Position numbers and translations under genes: made by a program. 64,000 nucleotides of DNA from the IMG/VR virus record IMGVR_UViG_3300010352_001405, positions 1-64,000 of that record; one strand, given 5' to 3'. Shown one piece after another: positions 12,873 through 31,557 of the stretch. Below the pieces are notes generated by a model. It was not told the DNA's origin. It ran no database searches and saw nothing but the letters and a program-made list of their open reading frames with translations. The stretch is from a virus. Lineage: Duplodnaviria > Caudoviricetes. Numbering within the stretch: position 1 is the stretch's first letter; each line of letters starts with the position of its first letter.

Positions 12873-13955
12873 ATGATTAAAAGATATAATCAATATATTA
12901 AAGAATCAAGAGAAGATATTGATCCTTATGGCGAAGAAATCTGGGAGGAAGTACCTAGAATCATAGAAATCGCTTTGAAACAAGGAAAACCACTAGATAA
13001 AATAACTAAATTAGATTGTTATAATAATCAATTAACTTCATTAGAAGGAATAGAAAAACTAGTTAATTTAAAAGAATTATGGTGTTCTTATAATCAATTA
13101 ACTAGTCTAGAAGGAATAGAAAAACTAGTTAATTTAAAAGAATTATATTGTTCTAATAATCGATTAACATCATTAGAAGGAATAGAAAAACTAGTTAATT
13201 TAGAAATATTATATTGTTTTTATAATCAATTAACTTCATTAGAAGGAATAGAAAAACTAGTCAATTTAAAAACATTATATTGTCATCATAATCGATTAAC
13301 TTCATTAGAAGGAATAGAAAAACTAGTTAATTTAAAAGAATTATATTGTCATCATAATCGATTAACTTCATTAAAAGGAATAGAAAAACTAGTTAATTTA
13401 GAAATATTATATTGTTATAATAATCAATTAACTTCATTAGAAGGAATAGAAAAACTAGTTAATTTAAAAACATTATATTGTCATCATAATCAATTAACTT
13501 CATTAGAAGGAATAGAAAAACTAGTTAATTTAAAAACATTATATTGTCATCATAATCGATTAACTTCATTAAAAGGAATAGAAAAACTAGTCAATTTAGA
13601 AATATTAGATTGTCATTCTAATCGATTAACTTCATTAGAAGGAATAGAAAAACTAGTCAATTTAGAAATATTAGATTGTTATAATAATCAATTAACTTCA
13701 TTAGAAGGAATAGAAAAACTAGTTAATTTAAAAGAATTATGGTGTTCTTATAATCAATTAATTTCATTAGAAGGAATAGAAAAACTAGTTAATTTAAAAA
13801 CGTTATGGTGTTATAATAATCAATTAACTTCATTAGAAGGAATAGAAAAACTAGTTGATTTAAAAATATTAAATTGTTCTAATAATGATTTTTCCAAAGA
13901 ATATATAAAATATCTAAAAGATTATTGTCTAAAAAATAAAATAAAATTAATATGA
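12873..13955 (+). CDS. Leucine-rich repeat protein (13 x 22 aa plus cap)
   Basis: LxxLxCxxNQLTSLEGIEKLVN repeats. Confidence 0.95.
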   Translation: MIKRYNQYIKESREDIDPYGEEIWEEVPRIIEIALKQGKPLDKITKLDCYNNQLTSLEGIEKLVNLKELWCSYNQLTSLEGIEKLVNLKELYCSNNRLTSLEGIEKLVNLEILYCFYNQLTSLEGIEKLVNLKTLYCHHNRLTSLEGIEKLVNLKELYCHHNRLTSLKGIEKLVNLEILYCYNNQLTSLEGIEKLVNLKTLYCHHNQLTSLEGIEKLVNLKTLYCHHNRLTSLKGIEKLVNLEILDCHSNRLTSLEGIEKLVNLEILDCYNNQLTSLEGIEKLVNLKELWCSYNQLISLEGIEKLVNLKTLWCYNNQLTSLEGIEKLVDLKILNCSNNDFSKEYIKYLKDYCLKNKIKLI

Positions 13956-15034
13956 TTAAAAAATATAATCAATATATTAAAGAATCAAGAGAAGATATTG
14001 ATCCTTATGGCGAAGAAATCTGGGAGGAAGTACCTAGAATCATAGAAATCGCTTTTAAACAAGGAAAACCACTGGACAAAATAACTGAATTAAATTGTTC
14101 TAATAATCAATTAACTTCATTAGAAGGAATAGAAAAACTAGTTAATTTAAAAATATTATATTGTTATAATAATCAATTAACTTCATTAGAAGGAATAGAA
14201 AAACTAGTTAATTTAAAAGAATTATATTGTTCTTATAATCAATTAACTAGTCTAGAAGGAATAGAAAAACTAGTTAATTTAAAAGAATTATATTGTTCTA
14301 ATAATCGATTAACATCATTAGAAGGAATAGAAAAACTAGTTGATCTAAAAATATTAAGATGTTCATATAATCAATTAACTTCATTAGAAGGAATAGAAAA
14401 ACTAGTCAATTTAGAAATATTAGATTGTTCTAGTAATCAATTAACTTCATTAGAAGGAATAGAAAAACTAGTTGATCTAAAAATATTAAGTTGTTATAAT
14501 AATCAATTAACTTCATTAGAAGGAATAGAAAAACTAGTCAATTTAGAAATATTAGATTTTTATGATAATCAATTAACTTCACTAGAAGGAATAGAAAAAC
14601 TAGTTAATTTAAAAGAATTAAATTGTTCTAATAATCAATTAACTTCATTAGAAGGAATAGAAAAACTAGTCAATTTAAAAACATTATATTGTCATCATAA
14701 TCGATTAACTTCATTAGAAGGAATAGAAAAACTAGTTAATTTAGAACGATTATATTGTTCTGATAATAAATTAACTTCATTAGAAGGAATAGAAAAACTA
14801 GTTGATCTAAAAATATTAAGTTGTTATAATAATCAATTAACTTCATTAGAAGGAATAGAAAAACTAGTCAATTTAGAAATATTAGATTTTTATAATAATC
14901 AATTAACTTCACTAGAAGGAATAGAAAAACTAGTTAATCTAAAAACATTAAGTTGTTCTAATAATGATTTTTCCAAAGAATATATAAAATATCTAAAAGA
15001 TTATTTAAAAAATAAAATAGAATTATTAATATGA
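13952..15034 (+). CDS. Leucine-rich repeat protein (13 repeats)
   Basis: Same repeat; ATGA overlap with the upstream gene. Confidence 0.95.
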   Translation: MIKKYNQYIKESREDIDPYGEEIWEEVPRIIEIAFKQGKPLDKITELNCSNNQLTSLEGIEKLVNLKILYCYNNQLTSLEGIEKLVNLKELYCSYNQLTSLEGIEKLVNLKELYCSNNRLTSLEGIEKLVDLKILRCSYNQLTSLEGIEKLVNLEILDCSSNQLTSLEGIEKLVDLKILSCYNNQLTSLEGIEKLVNLEILDFYDNQLTSLEGIEKLVNLKELNCSNNQLTSLEGIEKLVNLKTLYCHHNRLTSLEGIEKLVNLERLYCSDNKLTSLEGIEKLVDLKILSCYNNQLTSLEGIEKLVNLEILDFYNNQLTSLEGIEKLVNLKTLSCSNNDFSKEYIKYLKDYLKNKIELLI

Positions 15035-16113
15035 TTAAAAGATATAATCAATATATTAAAGAATCAAGAGAAGATATTGATCCTTATGGCGAAGAAATCT
15101 GGGAGGATGTGCCTAGAATCATAGAAATATCCTTGGAACAAGGAAAACCACTAGATAAAATAACTAAATTAGAATGTTCTAATAATCAATTAACTTCATT
15201 AGAAGGAATAGAAAAACTAGTTAATTTAAAAGAATTATGGTGTTCTTATAATCAATTAACTAGTCTAGAAGGAATAGAAAAACTAGTTAATTTAAAAATA
15301 TTATATTGTTATAATAATCAATTAACTTCATTAGAAGGAATAGAAAAACTAGTTAATTTAGAAATATTATATTGTTTTTATAATCAATTAACTTCATTAG
15401 AAGGAATAGAAAAACTAGTTAATTTAAAAATATTATATTGTTATAATAATCAATTAACTTCATTAGAAGGAATAGAAAAACTAGTCAATTTAGAAATATT
15501 AGATTGTTCTAGTAATCAATTAACATCATTAGAAGGAATAGAAAAACTAGTTAATTTAAAAACATTATATTGTCATCATAATCGATTAACTTCATTAAAA
15601 GGAATAGAAAAACTAGTTAATTTAAAAACATTATATTGTCATCATAATCGATTAACTTCATTAAAAGGAATAGAAAAACTAGTCAATTTAGAAATATTAG
15701 ATTGTTATAATAATCAATTAACTTCATTAGAAGGAATAGAAAAACTAGTCAATTTAAAAACATTATATTGTCATCATAATCGATTAACTTCATTAGAAGG
15801 AATAGAAAAACTAGTTAATTTAAAAATATTAAGTTGTTCTTATAATCAATTAACTTCATTAGAAGGAATAGAAAAACTAGTTAATTTAGAAATATTATAT
15901 TGTTATAATAATCAATTAACTTCATTAAAAGGAATAGAAAAACTAGTCAATTTAAAAACATTATATTGTCATCATAATCGATTAACTTCACTAGAAGGAA
16001 TAGAAAAACTAGTTAATCTAAAAACATTAAGTTGTTCTAATAATGATTTTTCCAAAGAATATATAAAATATTTAAAAAATTATTGTCTAAAAAATAAAAT
16101 AAAATTAATATGA
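15031..16113 (+). CDS. Leucine-rich repeat protein (13 repeats)
   Basis: Same repeat. Confidence 0.95.
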   Translation: MIKRYNQYIKESREDIDPYGEEIWEDVPRIIEISLEQGKPLDKITKLECSNNQLTSLEGIEKLVNLKELWCSYNQLTSLEGIEKLVNLKILYCYNNQLTSLEGIEKLVNLEILYCFYNQLTSLEGIEKLVNLKILYCYNNQLTSLEGIEKLVNLEILDCSSNQLTSLEGIEKLVNLKTLYCHHNRLTSLKGIEKLVNLKTLYCHHNRLTSLKGIEKLVNLEILDCYNNQLTSLEGIEKLVNLKTLYCHHNRLTSLEGIEKLVNLKILSCSYNQLTSLEGIEKLVNLEILYCYNNQLTSLKGIEKLVNLKTLYCHHNRLTSLEGIEKLVNLKTLSCSNNDFSKEYIKYLKNYCLKNKIKLI

Positions 16114-18797: not shown

Positions 18798-18906
18798 AAT
18801 AATTTTTTATTTCAAAAACTTTTTATAATTTTGTAATATAATTAAAAAATAATAAAAAGGAATAAAAATGGAAAAAATTGACATTTTTAATATAATATAT
18901 AAAAAT

Positions 18907-18978
18907 ATGAAAAACATGAATCACAAATATTATAATGATTGTATTATTAATGATAAGCTAAAAATGCTGATTGGATGA
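18907..18978 (+). CDS. Putative attenuator leader peptide 1 (MKNMNHKYYNDCIINDKLKMLIG)
   Basis: Short ORF after TGACATTTTT..TATAATATATAAAA; its last codons contain CTGATTGG, complementary to the terminator arm. Confidence 0.7.
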   Translation: MKNMNHKYYNDCIINDKLKMLIG

Positions 18979-19000
18979 ACTATGTTTATTTAACATAACG

Positions 19001-19036
19001 AAACCCCAATCAGAAATGACTGGGGTTTTTTGTTTT
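19001..19036 (+). terminator. Intrinsic terminator of attenuator 1
   Basis: aaaccccaatcagaaatgactggggttttttg hairpin plus U tract; identical core at 28168. Confidence 0.85.
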
Positions 19037-19058: not shown

Positions 19059-19125
19059 AAAGTCGACGAGTAGGGACAATCCAGACCTGTAAAATCTTAT
19101 TAGGATGTTCGAAACAGTACTTTGG
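19059..19125 (+). pseudogene. Possible degenerate tRNA-Tyr(GTA) remnant
   Basis: aaagt/acttt ends, CTGTAAA loop, TTCGAAA loop; stems are poor. Confidence 0.25.
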
Positions 19126-19142
19126 ATAGTTTGATATAAAAA

Positions 19143-19219
19143 CGGCGTGTATCACCTCTCTCTGATAAGGAGTTGAAAGTGTAACTGGTCACATGATGGT
19201 TCGACTCCATTCTCGCCGA
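19143..19219 (+). tRNA. Atypical D-arm-less tRNA-like RNA, anticodon GAT (Ile)
   Basis: cggcgtg/ctcgccg acceptor, CTGATAA loop, gatgg-TTCGACT-ccatt T arm, extra hairpin gtg-TAACTGGT-cac in the variable region. Confidence 0.6.
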
Positions 19220-19245
19220 CAAATTGTTTTTTGATTTAATGAAAC

Positions 19246-19323: not shown

Positions 19324-19369
19324 CATCAATAAAAATAAATTGTTCTTTGAAATTTTGTAAAAATATTAA

Positions 19370-20260
19370 CTTTGTTTGGAAAGTTTCTTCCGAAAGGAAG
19401 AGAAGAATAATGTGATGCGAGTCACAAAAGAGGATGGGTGTCACACCCACCTACCAATATCCAAATGGAAATTGGATCATCCAAAAAAGCATCGTCTTAT
19501 CGCATCCAAGTGCGATCTTCGCTTACCATGCGGAGATAAGATGGAAGAACGTTACTGGTTCTTTGGAAAGAATATATGGGGTAAGCCCCTACATAGAAAT
19601 GTGTTGGTAAGGAGCCTCATTAATTAGGGATTGACACCCCGACGCCAGTTGGTCAAACGTCCCATTATCCGATTAGATAAGATGTAGTTAGTCTGTTCAA
19701 ACACACCAAAGCAAGAGCTAACTAACAATTCCAAAGATGAAGGGTAATTCCGGAATCTTGAAGAATCACACAGTAGAGCTAGTAACTCGAAACGTATTGT
19801 GTGTGTCGTGTATTTTGTACCTCAAAAGGGTATGAATCACAAGAGTAGGCACCACACGGTGACATAGTAAATTTGCTTAATGGTAGAGCAATTCCATTTT
19901 AAGGAATAGGTTGTTGGTTCAAATCCATCATTTATTAACAGGAAAGACCTACTCAACGATAAACGGAAAGTCGTTTAATTCTCAACATCTTCGGATGAAT
20001 TGAGAGTCTGGAAAGCCCCAAGCTGGAAGGATTTGGTTGAAAAATGCACCTAATGGTTTAGCGACCATGTACTGTGGAAACACAGAGGGTAATTGGAAAG
20101 CCGAATATGTTTATCGGGAAAAGTTGAGTCTCCAACTATAAAAAGGCAACGTCGTCGATAGACCTCTTTTGAAGAGGTGGATAAGTTGGGAACCGCTGGC
20201 GGGAGTCGGTAGGATAATACAACAAAGGTATCGATATCAAGGATGTAATCTCAGTCCTTT
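19370..20260 (+). ncRNA. Large structured RNA, probably GOLLD-like (~890 nt)
   Basis: GC-elevated non-coding stretch with dense hairpins (GAAA/TTCG loops) inside a tRNA cluster; contains an embedded tRNA; ends gtaatctcagtcc; boundaries approximate. Confidence 0.6.
19865..19938 (+). tRNA. tRNA-Lys(TTT)-like element embedded in the large ncRNA
   Basis: tagtaaa/tttatta acceptor, gct-taatggtag-agc D arm, attcc-ATTTTAA-ggaat, GGTTCAAATCC. Confidence 0.65.
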
Positions 20261-20396: not shown

Positions 20397-20712
20397 GGCT
20401 CGTTAGCTCAGTAGGTAGAGCAGCAGACTGTAAGTAATTGCAGCTTATATGAGTGATCATATTTGAAAAATCGGATGAACTCAGGGAAACCTTCACTCAT
20501 TAAAAATGGGTATGGTAATCCTGATCCAAGCTCAAAGAAGGTCAAATTATGTATTTGAGAAGGAGCAGAGACTAAAAGGTGAGAAAACCAATCAATAAAC
20601 CTTTACAAGCGTCCGACATCTTATAAAAAGATGATGATATAGTCCACCCTATAATGAAAATTATAGATAATGTGTAATCTGTTGGTCGTAGGTTCGACCC
20701 CTACACGAGCCG
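20397..20712 (+). tRNA. tRNA-Asn(GTT) split by a group I intron (exons 20397-20431 and 20675-20712)
   Basis: Joined exons give gcaga-CTGTTAA-tctgt and a full cloverleaf. Confidence 0.9.
20432..20674 (+). mobile_element. Group I intron (IC3-like) with no ORF
   Basis: 5' exon ends in U pairing with G of the IGS (ctgt/gcag); core elements gaactcagggaaacc, ggtaatcctgatccaag, gcagagact, gatatagtcc; terminal G. Confidence 0.9.
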
Positions 20713-20720
20713 CAAAAAGA

Positions 20721-20814
20721 GGGAAAGTAACGGCACTGGTCTGTAAAACCAACCTGCTCAACAAATCGTCGTAGTGGACTTAGCAGTAAGTGAGTTCGAA
20801 TCTCACCTTTCCCA
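20721..20814 (+). tRNA. Atypical D-arm-less tRNA-like RNA, anticodon GTA (Tyr), long variable arm
   Basis: gggaaag/ctttccc acceptor, tggt-CTGTAAA-acca, ctgct/agcag arm, gtgag-TTCGAAT-ctcac. Confidence 0.65.
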
Positions 20815-21941: not shown

Positions 21942-22157
21942 ATGGGAGCTTTAGAAGAAAGAATCAAACAAGAAAATGAAATTTTGAGAAAAATTAAACG
22001 TGAAATCATCAAATGCGCAAAGAAAGGTGAATTACACTATTATTGGGAAATAACAGGGTTAAGTGATTCCACGGTTAAAAGTATAGTAAAGGAATTAGAA
22101 TCTGATGGAAAGTATGTTAATAGTAAAGGAATGAATTTTAAAATAGTGAGATGGTGA
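21942..22157 (+). CDS. Hypothetical protein
   Basis: ORF track. Confidence 0.55.
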   Translation: MGALEERIKQENEILRKIKREIIKCAKKGELHYYWEITGLSDSTVKSIVKELESDGKYVNSKGMNFKIVRW

Positions 22158-27957: not shown

Positions 27958-28069
27958 TTATTTATATATTATTTTTTTATTTCATAAACTTTTATTAATT
28001 TTGTATTTATAAAATAGAAAAAAATGACATTTTTATTATAATATATAAAAATACTAAAAAATAAAAATT

Positions 28070-28144
28070 ATGAACTTTCGAATAGAATATATGATACAAG
28101 AACAAATGCAACAGATCAAAAATCTGATTGGGTATGCTGTGTGA
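28070..28144 (+). CDS. Putative attenuator leader peptide 2 (MNFRIEYMIQEQMQQIKNLIGYAV)
   Basis: Same promoter context and CTGATTGG antiterminator strand as leader 1. Confidence 0.7.
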   Translation: MNFRIEYMIQEQMQQIKNLIGYAV

Positions 28145-28167
28145 TAACTATAAGATTGTTATAATAT

Positions 28168-28200
28168 AACCCCAATCAGAAATGACTGGGGTTTTTTGTT
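28168..28200 (+). terminator. Intrinsic terminator of attenuator 2
   Basis: aaccccaatcagaaatgactggggttttttg, identical to the copy at 19002. Confidence 0.85.
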
Positions 28201-28205
28201 TAAAT

Positions 28206-28268
28206 GCTCCCATCGTCTAAAGGTAGGACAAAAGCTTTTCATACTTTAAATGCGATTCGCTGGGAGTA
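28206..28268 (+). pseudogene. tRNA-Glu(TTC) with shortened T arm
   Basis: gctccca/tgggagt acceptor, Glu-type D arm, TTTTCAT loop; T arm reduced to gcg-att-cgc. Confidence 0.6.
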
Positions 28269-28407: not shown

Positions 28408-28484
28408 GCCGATGTGGGCGGAGTTGGCTATCGCATGTGAATCATAATCACAACACGTCGCTGGTTCGAATCCAGCCATCGGTA
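28408..28484 (+). tRNA. tRNA-Met/Ile2(CAT)
   Basis: tgtga-ATCATAA-tcaca; gctgg-TTCGAAT-ccagc. Confidence 0.85.
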
Positions 28485-28487
28485 CAT

Positions 28488-28562
28488 TGCTCCTTAGCGC
28501 AACTTGGTTAGAGCTAGTGGTTTTGAGCCACAGGGTTGGAGGTTCGAGTCCTTCAGGAGCAG
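28488..28562 (+). tRNA. tRNA-Gln(TTG)
   Basis: tgctcct/aggagca acceptor; gtgg-TTTTGAG-ccac. Confidence 0.85.
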
Positions 28563-28565
28563 CAC

Positions 28566-28636
28566 AGTTTCTTGATGTAACGGAAGCATATAATTTTCTG
28601 AAAATTATTGTCTTGGTTCAAATCCAAGAGAAACTA
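28566..28636 (+). tRNA. tRNA-Gln(CTG)
   Basis: agtttct/agaaact acceptor; taatt-TTCTGAA-aatta. Confidence 0.8.
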
Positions 28637-28746
28637 CTAAATAATATTAAAAAATAATTGACCTTTTATTCATTTCGATCTACGAATTTAAAACTTTTTA
28701 CACTGTATAATATATAACATTAAAAATTTTTGGAAACATAGTAATT

Positions 28747-29277
28747 ATGAAAAAATTATTTATTATTTTATTTATCTTAACTTCTTTTATATTAAACGCT
28801 CAAACAAAAGGAACGTTCATTGATATACGTGATAATAAAACATACAAAACTATCAAAATAGGTGATCAAATTTGGATGAATGAAGATCTAAAATATAATG
28901 ATACTACATTATATAACTATCAAGTGATTATGAACGGAACAAAACCAGATACAAATCAAATCAAAGGGATTTGTCCATATGGTTGGCATGTACCAAATGT
29001 AAGTGAATGGTATAAATTATTAATAACTGTTGGAAGACAAAATGCTTCTGAAAAATTAAGAGATTATAATGGATTTCACGCATCTATGAATGGTAGATAT
29101 AATTTTGATAAAAAATTGTTAGAAAATAAAGGAAGTCATTCATATTACTGGACATCAACTGAAAGAGATCAAAGTACAGCTTGGGTATATTTTATATATG
29201 AAATGGCACCATCTGTAAATAAAATAGATGGTGATAAAAATTTCGGATATTCTTTAAGATGTATAAAAAATTTTTAA
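28747..29277 (+). CDS. Secreted FISUMP (Fibrobacter succinogenes major paralogous) domain protein
   Basis: Signal peptide; DIRDNKTYKTIKIGDQIWM, GICPYGWHVP, YYWTST, GYSLRCIK. Confidence 0.85.
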   Translation: MKKLFIILFILTSFILNAQTKGTFIDIRDNKTYKTIKIGDQIWMNEDLKYNDTTLYNYQVIMNGTKPDTNQIKGICPYGWHVPNVSEWYKLLITVGRQNASEKLRDYNGFHASMNGRYNFDKKLLENKGSHSYYWTSTERDQSTAWVYFIYEMAPSVNKIDGDKNFGYSLRCIKNF

Positions 29278-29354
29278 AAATAATTTTTTAAATCAAAAAA
29301 TAAATTCTATATTTGTATTATAAATATGGTTCATTGAAATTTTGAAAAATATAT

Positions 29355-29440
29355 AGCGGGATAGTCTAATGGTAGGATCCTAGGCTCATAATCTAGAGAA
29401 TGGTAAAGTCCAGTTGGAGGTTCGATTCCTTCTCCCGCAA
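29355..29440 (+). tRNA. Initiator-like tRNA-Met(CAT) with extended variable arm
   Basis: 1:72 mismatch, gcggga/tcccgc acceptor, ctagg-CTCATAA-tctag, 19-nt variable region. Confidence 0.75.
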
Positions 29441-29444
29441 CTAA

Positions 29445-29590
29445 AAGGTGTTTTTTGTTTTAATGTAGCTAATGCAAAGATATCAGGGCAAGACCTGATG
29501 CGAGGGTATGATGTCGAAGTCATATCAAACAAAAATCTAGAGGGTGTAGCAAATCCCTTACATTAAAACAAAGAAAGTCTAGACCACCTT
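29445..29590 (+). ncRNA. Unassigned structured RNA
   Basis: 14-bp closing stem tttgttttaatgta/tacattaaaacaaa enclosing three hairpins. Confidence 0.6.
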
Positions 29591-29599
29591 AAAATATAC

Positions 29600-29672
29600 G
29601 GTCTGGTATGTCAATGGTTAGACGGCAATTCTTATAAAATTGAGGTTGGTGGTTCAAGTCCACCCCAGACTA
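29600..29672 (+). tRNA. tRNA-Ile(TAT)
   Basis: ggtctgg/ccagact acceptor; caatt-CTTATAA-aattg; ggtgg-TTCAAGT-ccacc. Confidence 0.9.
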
Positions 29673-29743
29673 CGATATGATAAAAGTTCAAGTTGTAAAA
29701 AACGACTTTTTTATTTTAATATATAAAATAAAAAAGGAACATT

Positions 29744-30508
29744 ATGGAAAAAAATGAAATAAAAAATAAAATTTTAAATTCAAAGTCTAGAACTGAAGCT
29801 AGTAAAAAAATATTCAATTATTCAAATAGAACAACCTTATTAAAAATAGATTATTATTTAAAAGAATTTGATTTAGTAGGTTTTTTCAAAAAGAAAAAAA
29901 TTGAAAAAAAATGTTTAAATTGCGGAATCATAATAAATAGAAGAAATAAGTTTTGTTGTCAATCTTGTTCGGCTATTTATAATAATAAAAATAGACAATT
30001 GACAGAAGATACTAAAAATAAAATAAGTAAATCTTTAAAGGGTAGAAATAGAGTAGATGTAAAAAGTAAAGGAAAGACTATTATTATAAATTGTAAAAAT
30101 TGTAACAATGAATTTTTATTTTTAAAATATAAATTAAAAGAAGGAAAATCTAATTTTTGTAGTAAAAGTTGTTACCATGAATATAGAACTAAAAATAAAA
30201 AAGATATAAAACATTTACAAAAATTAAATAGAATAAAATATAATTATGGATTAAACGAAGATGAATATATAAAATTGTTTGAAAATCAAAATTATATTTG
30301 TCCTATTTGTAATATTAATCTAAATGATGTGAAAGCTTGTGTTGATCACGAACACAACACTGGTAAAATAAGGGGAATTTTATGTGATAAATGTAATAAG
30401 GGTATTGGTCATTTTGAAGATAATATAAAACTATTCGAAAATGCTATAATTTATTTAAAGACTTTTTATGAAAAAGAAAATATTAAAAATATAAATATGA
30501 TTCAGTAA
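29744..30508 (+). CDS. Endonuclease VII-like (His-Me) homing endonuclease within the tRNA cluster
   Basis: QNYICPIC...VDHEHNTGKIRGILCDKCNKGIGHF; N-terminal CxxC..FCS fingers and NUMOD3-like motif. Confidence 0.85.
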   Translation: MEKNEIKNKILNSKSRTEASKKIFNYSNRTTLLKIDYYLKEFDLVGFFKKKKIEKKCLNCGIIINRRNKFCCQSCSAIYNNKNRQLTEDTKNKISKSLKGRNRVDVKSKGKTIIINCKNCNNEFLFLKYKLKEGKSNFCSKSCYHEYRTKNKKDIKHLQKLNRIKYNYGLNEDEYIKLFENQNYICPICNINLNDVKACVDHEHNTGKIRGILCDKCNKGIGHFEDNIKLFENAIIYLKTFYEKENIKNINMIQ

Positions 30509-30628
30509 ACCAGCTTCTCTATTCGCAGGCCTATGGCACAGGACACAGAATATGCGCCCGTAACGTAAGATAACGAGAGAACAATTAAGGAGGGAATGGC
30601 GAGTCTCCCTATCTAACTGGAGCTGTTT
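30508..30628 (+). ncRNA. Unassigned structured RNA
   Basis: cagcttc/ggagctg closing stem with internal hairpins; GC-rich island. Confidence 0.5.
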
Positions 30629-30674
30629 CACAATTAATCATAGAAATTACACGAACTAACAAATAAAAAAAATA

Positions 30675-31351: not shown

Positions 31352-31426
31352 GCTCTCGTCGTCTAATCGGTTAGGACATCGCCTTTTCACGGCGAAGATT
31401 TGCGAGTTCGAGTCTCGTCGAGAGTA
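31352..31426 (+). tRNA. tRNA-Glu(TTC)
   Basis: tcgcc-TTTTCAC-ggcga; full cloverleaf. Confidence 0.9.
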
Positions 31427-31480
31427 CAAAAAAGATTTAGATTATAATCCTTCTAATAATGTAGATTTTAAAAGAATTGA

Positions 31481-31557
31481 ACTCCCGTCGTCTAGTGATC
31501 CAGGACGTCAGATTCTCATTCTGAAGATCGTGGGTTTAAATCCCATCGGGAGTACCA
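31481..31557 (+). tRNA. tRNA-Glu(CTC) with encoded CCA
   Basis: tcaga-TTCTCAT-tctga; T loop TTTAAAT is atypical. Confidence 0.85.

Follow-up and report, generated by a model that had tools for sequence, protein, structure and literature searches.

The enterobacterial leaders trpL, hisL, leuL, pheL, thrL and ilvL are leader-peptide attenuators of amino-acid biosynthesis operons, and the pheM leader attenuates the E. coli pheST operon. Phage tRNA clusters, such as those of T4-like, T5-like and huge phages, have been read as a codon-supply or a counter-defence device. The locus described here lies ahead of such a cluster, and we consider it likely to be a ribosome-mediated (leader-peptide) transcription attenuator that gates a block of phage tRNA genes by sensing the supply of the cognate aminoacyl-tRNAs. 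On this reading, the logic of leader-peptide attenuation is a known one and its target, tRNA genes, is new, the usual protein-coding biosynthetic targets being absent. A full-text literature search returned no paper on the attenuation of tRNA genes, nor one on a codon-matched attenuator before phage tRNA clusters.

The window analyzed here is a stretch of 64,000 nucleotides, bases 1–64000 of a 163-kb IMG/VR contig. CheckV rates this contig as 23% complete, so that it appears to represent only part of a very large phage. The DNA, which is AT-rich, contains many TAnnTTTG boxes behind T-rich blocks, a combination that we take to be the Bacteroidota promoter type and that therefore points to a Bacteroidota host. 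When window positions 17–32 kb were compared with phage records by megablast, the sole match was an unrelated one of 83 bp in a 735-kb uncultured phage. Four related contigs were reached through a neighbouring protein. Below, G000 denotes the window's own genome and G001, G002 and G003 its relatives, of which G003 is the more distant (194 kb; 57% identity in the neighbouring protein used as query); the genomes of the relatives are non-independent samples. Elsewhere in the window, at 12873–16113, three tandem ORFs of exactly 360 amino acids each are followed by an ORF of 250 amino acids.

Layout of the element and its sister copies

The element, referred to here as copy 2, occupies positions 28017–28201 of the window on the plus strand. 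The sequence features listed for it by the first-pass annotation (promoter-like block, ORF, antiterminator strand, small hairpin and terminator) are all present. Upstream, at 27970–28003, lies a predicted host-type (Bacteroidota-like) promoter on the same strand, consisting of a T-rich upstream block and a −7 box, TAATTTTG, at 27996–28003. The same pairing of T-rich block and TAnnTTTG precedes copy 1, the sister attenuator (at 18800–18833), and several protein genes. A phage promoter-like block, GAAAAAAATGACATTTTT-N-ATAATATATAAAA, follows at 28017–28049 and occurs at all four attenuators of the genome. The repeat TGACATTTTTA.TATAATATATAAAAATA indeed recurs at 28025–28053 and 18879–18907 (2 matches, against 0 expected in shuffles). 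Its earlier designation as a promoter stands only in part: the block is present, but it also lies 20–30 nt before the ATG of protein genes, for example at 22155 and 29695. Since the phage-type block is found before protein genes and also sits downstream of the Bacteroidota-type TAnnTTTG box, the attenuator switches may be fed by two promoters, the host-type box and the phage-type block. Sigma-70 promoter matches were no commoner than in shuffles (30 against 28.4), a scan that is uninformative in AT-rich DNA.

The predicted leader ORF, at 28070–28144 on the plus strand, comprises 24 codons and a TGA stop; its translation is the peptide MNFRIEYMIQEQMQQIKNLIGYAV, and it is kept in relatives. Sensor codons 5–15, which read I E Y M I Q E Q M Q Q, lie at 28082–28114. 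Further downstream, and still within the ORF, the 5′ strand of the antiterminator, UCUGAUUGGG, occupies 28123–28132. In agreement with the earlier description, CTGATTGGG at 28124–28132 (antiterminator strand CUGAUUGGG) is read as L-I-G in the frame used in copy 1. A small hairpin inside the antiterminator, at 28140–28163, pairs 28140–28147 with 28156–28163 and overlaps the leader stop codon; this hairpin is possibly a pause site. The element closes with a predicted intrinsic terminator at 28170–28201, in which a hairpin (28170–28191) is followed by the T tract TTTTTTGTTT. A simple terminator scan missed this hairpin, presumably because of an A/C mismatch.

Copy 1 (18871–19036, plus strand) carries the leader MKNMNHKYYNDCIINDKLKMLIG and stands ahead of Cys, Lys, Asp, Asn and Tyr tRNAs. 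The 22-nt terminator core of copy 2, CCCCAATCAGAAATGACTGGGG (28170–28191), is base-for-base identical to 19004–19025 (2 matches, against 0 expected), as had been claimed. Equally, the two leaders give no meaningful alignment outside the shared blocks, and their coding parts are unrelated. An in-frame ATG within the promoter-like block of copy 1 lengthens its leader ORF by 13 codons (18868–18906) in this genome only. This extension is probably unused, because the same ATG in G002 runs into a stop.

Four attenuators are present in G000, each ahead of a tRNA cluster, and G001, G002 and G003 hold 3, 4 and 3, respectively. The same architecture precedes the four-tRNA Leu cluster of G000 (~130.6 kb, minus strand; leader MKNILNIVSLNSLDLLLCYRSIG) and its Trp-His-Phe-Ser-Lys cluster (~138.4 kb, minus strand; leader MIHIYKHSKHSSFSSKWFATIGVLILLCL). 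The Trp-type switch has a different antiterminator, in which AUCGGGGU pairs with ACCCCGAU. Further attenuators are carried by 12 metagenome contigs, and contig L025 carries a Trp-type element. The metagenome scan gave 16 matches, comprising 12 true attenuator instances and 4 chance matches, and the scan of genome contigs gave two chance matches, one inside coding sequence and the other a plain long hairpin. Searched in IMG/VR, the leader-core patterns matched only two close relatives and one 9.6-kb contig, and the exact terminator sequence had no IMG/VR match outside this genome.

Two other loci of this genome were noted in passing. Within the Trp/His/Phe/Ser/Lys cluster, at genome positions 137436–137707 (minus strand; contig L054, 737–1009), ARAGORN reports a 'suppressor tRNA (tta)' that has an intron of 180 nt. 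Under the splice rules of group I introns this could instead be a tRNA-Lys(UUU); Rfam at gathering score supports neither the suppressor nor the tRNA-Lys reading. At ~147.9 kb (minus strand), a region of structured RNA and tRNA is immediately preceded by four or five direct repeats of AAATTAGATTA, and this direct-repeat locus has no attenuator.

The antiterminator and terminator structures

The minimum-free-energy fold of 28115–28203 is the antiterminator, at −19.8 kcal/mol, with 28123–28132 paired to 28171–28180; the terminator hairpin alone reaches −11.3 kcal/mol. The two structures share the 5′ arm of the terminator and are predicted to be mutually exclusive. When the nascent RNA is folded only as far as the terminator loop, the antiterminator helix results in every one of the 26 instances of the family. 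The leader stop codon of copy 2 is at 28142, which places the antiterminator strand within reach of a ribosome at the stop.

Per-sequence folds across the instances reveal seven versions of the helix with compensatory changes: CUGAUUGG(G)/(C)CCAAUCAG; GAUUGGGU/ACCCAAUC; GGAUUGGGU/ACCCAAUCC; AUCGGGGU/ACCCCGAU; UUCGGGGUU/AACCCCGAA; UUGAUUGGG/CCCAAUCAA; and an interrupted 14-bp helix in G003. In alignment A2, 85.5% of cells are paired and 4 of 9 pairs change on both sides, an imperfect count to which some misaligned rows contribute. In four rows, those of the Trp/His/Phe/Ser/Lys class and the G003 Leu leader, MAFFT put the antiterminator in the wrong place, and these rows were judged by their per-sequence folds. 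None of 500 shuffles reached the covariation score of this alignment.

These antiterminators are also specific in their location. The four genomes (525 kb) contain 36 terminator-like hairpins, and in 13 of them the 5′ arm has an exact complement of 8 nt or more upstream. All 13 precede tRNA clusters, and such a complement occurs in 0 of the 23 others. The G003 Leu switch, with its interrupted helix, would be a fourteenth tRNA-cluster antiterminator. The reading frame over the antiterminator is shifted in G002 cL, and in G003 cE a stop codon falls inside it. Because the frame differs in these cases, the constraint over this segment, as judged from comparison of the genomes, is on the RNA and not on the peptide.

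No clear region-1 (anti-antiterminator) hairpin was found in the folds. A weak CAGAU/AUCUG stem, seen in the centroid fold and by eye in relatives, and the small internal hairpin are present, neither clearly conserved. The lack of a clear region-1 hairpin would suit a different reading, in which the switch is real but senses general translation (ribosome availability, or coupling during host shut-off) and codon content is secondary. Since RNA free of ribosomes folds by default into the antiterminator, all clusters would open whenever translation is lost. However, a sensor of this kind would not need leaders that follow the tRNAs of their cluster, down to rare isoacceptor codons, across genomes, and we regard this explanation as unlikely.

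The decision could also lie with a factor that binds the RNA in trans, whether a phage or host antiterminator protein or an uncharged tRNA as in a T-box, with the ORF incidental. Conserved blocks flank the switch, and copy 1 shows a weak, sub-threshold match to the PyrR-binding attenuator (RF00515; 26.6 bits against a gathering score of 54, E = 0.63). Copy 2, however, has no match to this family, nor to the T-box or any other cis-regulatory Rfam family at E ≤ 1. Furthermore, the part that differs between the paralogous copies is exactly the coding part, and all 26 instances retain the ORF, with substitutions that preserve the set, making a trans-acting factor distinctly improbable. Neither the PyrR-binding attenuator nor the T-box riboswitch was retained as an assignment; the latter gave no match at gathering score or at E ≤ 1.

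Leader codons and the tRNA genes behind them

The genes behind copy 2 all lie on the plus strand. The first after the terminator is a tRNA-Glu(UUC)-like gene with a shortened T arm (28206–28268), which Rfam detects at 36.8 bits and ARAGORN does not call. The ARAGORN and Rfam calls further comprise tRNA-Met(CAU), tRNA-Gln(UUG) and tRNA-Gln(CUG) at 28408–28637; a second tRNA-Met(CAU) at 29355–29441 with tRNA-Ile(UAU) at 29600–29673; and, at 31352–31557, tRNA-Glu(UUC) (the canonical copy, at 31352) and tRNA-Glu(CUC). Two protein genes are inserted in this cluster. One, at 28747–29277, is lipoprotein-like with a Fib_succ_major domain; the other, at 29744–30508, is an endonuclease VII gene with an HNH-like Cys/His motif and a NUMOD3 motif, and its product is probably a homing endonuclease. 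Between the tRNAs of both clusters, the stretches 19376–19800, 29460–29590 and 30509–30660 are G+C-richer, with no ORF and no Rfam match, and are candidates for structured RNAs or intron remnants.

The correspondence proposed between leader 2 and its tRNAs was borne out by our calls. Ten of the 11 codons at positions 5–15 are read by Glu-UUC, Met-CAU (two copies), Gln-UUG, Gln-CUG, Ile-UAU and Glu-CUC, and the probability of at least 10 of 11 is 1.9e-7 at the genome-wide share of 0.170 for those codons. A fuller count took in every leader codon from the start codon to the antiterminator, under plain wobble rules and with no choice of sub-window. For the leaders of G000 this gave 15 of 19 matches in c1 (expected share 0.39, P = 4.3e-4), 10 of 17 in c2 (0.17, P = 1.2e-4), 6 of 19 in the Leu leader, cL (0.085, P = 3.9e-3), and 9 of 19 in the Trp-type leader, cW (Trp/His/Phe/Ser/Lys; 0.106, P = 5.6e-5). 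The Fisher-combined probability of this reciprocal codon match is 6.8e-11 over the four G000 leaders, with corresponding values of 1.6e-11 for G002 and 8.8e-8 for G003. Off-diagonal values, in which a leader is compared with the other clusters, are low for c2, cL and cW. The c1-type codons (AAT, AAA, GAT, TAT and ATT) are common in this AT-rich genome, and the c1 match is less specific.

Codon choice within an amino acid follows the same pattern. For Ile, c1 leaders use ATT 15 times and ATA 0 times, a tally that leaves out two ATA codons, both in the non-conserved upstream ATG extension of the G000 ORF; genome-wide, ATA accounts for 50% and ATT for 42%. The c2 cores use ATA for Ile. Leu leaders contain nearly all six Leu codons, in a genome whose Leu usage is 61% TTA and 1.5% CTG. 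Judged by these counts, the match between leaders and tRNAs is one that reaches the level of isoacceptors. The first-pass annotation had held that the Ile codon tracks the cluster. This is so for copy 2, where ATA accompanies tRNA-Ile(UAU); the tRNA-Ile(GAU) that it placed in cluster 1 is absent from the ARAGORN and Rfam calls, though the clusters of relatives carry tRNA-Ile(GAU).

By ARAGORN and Rfam, cluster 1 contains Cys, Lys-UUU, Asp, Asn-GUU and Tyr-GUA tRNAs. It also holds a tRNA-like stretch of ~160 nt (19063–19222) with a 9-bp acceptor-like stem and the T arm GGTTCGACTCC, for which there is no ARAGORN or Rfam call. Confirmation of this stretch as a tRNA-Ile(GAU) failed: it gives no alignment to the tRNA-Ile of relatives and folds no better than shuffles. 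Behind copy 1 lies a GOLLD RNA at 19799–20257 (Rfam 155.2 bits, full-length model), within which tRNA-Lys(UUU) is embedded at 19865–19939. The tRNA-Asn(GUU), contained in 20397–20814, is split by a group I intron (20421–20666; Rfam 94.5 bits), its anticodon being GUU by the U/omega-G splice rules. Beside it, tRNA-Tyr(GUA) at 20721–20814 scores 33.4 bits with Rfam and was missed by ARAGORN.

Leaders and clusters also differ together in the more distant genome. The Cys/Asn/Tyr/Ile/Asp cluster of G003 additionally holds tRNAs for Gln and Met, and Q and M are gains in its leader, MKTMCNYMNIYDDQMKILIG. A separate G003 cluster of Glu-CUC, Glu-UUC and Ile-UAU is preceded by a leader reading ..IYEEIEN.., with codons GAA, GAG and ATA.

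The ORF itself is consistently maintained. All 26 instances have an ATG-started ORF that terminates at the antiterminator or shortly beyond it, whereas the chance of such an ORF at any one site is ~0.1 (10% of shuffles). The c2 ORF is kept in 9 distinct c2-type sequences, in which changes to the core MIQEQMQQ are only synonymous or within the set (Q to E). The residues of this core are also conserved in order, which a pure codon sensor would not need. That order is what would be expected if the small ORFs encoded functional micropeptides and their resemblance to attenuators were coincidental. The c1 leaders, however, keep their composition (N, D, Y, C, I and K) and not the order of residues, and relatives differ in the frame that runs across the antiterminator. 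The four classes have the RNA switch in common although their peptides are unrelated, and we give the micropeptide reading very little credence.

A further consideration is where transcription of the tRNA genes begins. The motif GTTC[AT]TTGA (GTTCWTTGA) follows most attenuator terminators and precedes most tRNA units. In the form GTTC[AT]TTGA(A)AT.TTG it occurs at window positions 19342, 20382, 28337 and 29329 and in the tRNA clusters of G002 and G003, and thus in three genomes. Its role may be that of a processing signal or of a promoter element; as a promoter, it would bypass the attenuator switch. A caution raised earlier about a promoter at 29308 also has substance: a −7 box of the TAnnTTTG type, TATATTTG, is found at 29308–29315 (plus strand), before the second tRNA-Met and ahead of the distal tRNAs. 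Together with the inserted protein genes, this box may release the distal tRNAs (Ile-UAU, the second Met and both canonical Glu) from the attenuator.

These features lend themselves to another explanation, in which a plain terminator ends a short, non-regulatory transcript and the tRNAs are made from downstream promoters, either GTTCWTTGA or the TAnnTTTG box at 29308. The internal host-type box would fit this, as would the presence of GTTCWTTGA between the terminator and the first tRNA or non-coding RNA in many clusters. However, GTTCWTTGA lies ~14 nt downstream of TAnnTTTG boxes in several places (window 29308/29329; G002 27014 and 47692), which suggests that it sits inside transcripts and not at a promoter position. 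A plain terminator would also leave unexplained the occurrence of antiterminators only at these terminators, their covariation and the match between ORFs and tRNAs. We consider it a poor candidate, in the same range as a trans-acting factor.

Predicted mechanism and relation to described systems

The idea of a conserved switch with a re-programmed sensor, put forward from two copies, gains from this wider comparison of sequences. Additional copies and leaders, compensatory changes, antiterminators confined to tRNA clusters, reciprocal codons and the joint change of leader and cluster in a distant relative all argue for it. In the attenuation mechanism that we favor, transcription would start at the promoters within 27970–28049, and a ribosome would translate the 24-codon leader while RNA polymerase moves ahead. 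A ribosome running smoothly to the stop codon would cover CUGAUUGGG (28124–28132). With this strand covered, the terminator hairpin (28170–28191) and its U tract would form, and the transcript would end before the tRNAs. When the cognate aminoacyl-tRNAs are scarce, the ribosome would instead stall at the Ile(AUA), Glu, Met or Gln codons of positions 5–15 and leave CUGAUUGGG free. The free strand would pair with the 5′ arm of the terminator, CCCAAUCAG, allowing read-through into the Glu, Met, Gln and possibly Ile tRNA genes, whose products would relieve the stall and so exert negative feedback on tRNA supply. In the complete absence of translation, read-through is predicted too, the antiterminator being the default fold.

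We infer leader translation, the coupling of transcription and translation in the host, the direction of the response and the reach of control along the cluster. The presence of isoacceptor codons in the leaders makes it more likely that the signal is the supply of tRNAs and not that of amino acids. More broadly, and with somewhat less assurance than for the single element, we lean toward a modular homeostat of tRNA supply. In such a system, each tRNA block would be gated by its own attenuator, each leader would list the codons of its block down to isoacceptors, the phage would gauge how fast each codon set is decoded in the infected cell, and only the tRNA sets in short supply would be switched on. 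The shortage could arise from a mismatch with host codon usage or from host anticodon nucleases.

If this attenuator is confirmed, it would be the first known to regulate tRNA genes and would constitute a built-in sensor of tRNA-targeting defence. It addresses why large phages carry tRNA genes and how these genes are controlled. A codon-matched attenuator would show that tRNA supply is sensed directly at the ribosome, that phage tRNA sets are made on demand and not constitutively, and that attenuation, a logic known from amino-acid and synthetase genes, has been turned to RNA genes. The element provides a direct handle for testing whether phage tRNAs answer the tRNA-cleaving defences of the host. 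It also offers compact, re-programmable sensor parts that would respond to the decoding speed of chosen codons, and the codons of a leader can be used to infer which tRNAs an as yet unassembled cluster contains.

Several described systems share parts of this design. Like T4-like, T5-like and huge phages, this phage carries its own clustered tRNAs together with homing endonucleases, introns and large non-coding RNAs (GOLLD). With the T-box (RF00230) the element shares the principle that a tRNA-related signal, here a presumed one, decides between terminator and antiterminator upstream of genes for translation supply. The T-box, however, binds uncharged tRNA through a specifier codon and the T-box sequence and needs no ORF, whereas the phage element has a conserved one. 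The pheST operon with its pheM leader offers another parallel, namely ribosome-mediated attenuation of a gene of the translation apparatus by the supply of cognate charged tRNA, as would also apply here. Its target is an aminoacyl-tRNA synthetase for one amino acid in a bacterium; those of the phage element are tRNA genes for several amino acids.

No Rfam leader family matches the element in copies 1 and 2, and its likeness to the trpL-type attenuators lies in their organization. Both have a short leader, translated in the enterobacteria and predicted to be so in the phage, that is rich in diagnostic codons, with the stop codon beside the 5′ strand of the antiterminator. In both, an antiterminator and an intrinsic terminator compete for the same 3′ partner, and a stalled ribosome favors read-through, presumably so in the phage. 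The geometry of the phage element matches regions 2, 3 and 4 of the trp attenuator, in contrast to region 1, for which it has no evident hairpin. The targets differ as well, being enzymes in trpL-type systems and tRNAs and other non-coding RNAs in the phage, including GOLLD and an intron-bearing tRNA behind copy 1. Finally, trpL-type leaders repeat one amino acid, whereas the phage leaders are multivalent, drawing on the codons of every isoacceptor that lies behind them, and form a paralogous family of attenuators with exchangeable leaders within a phage.
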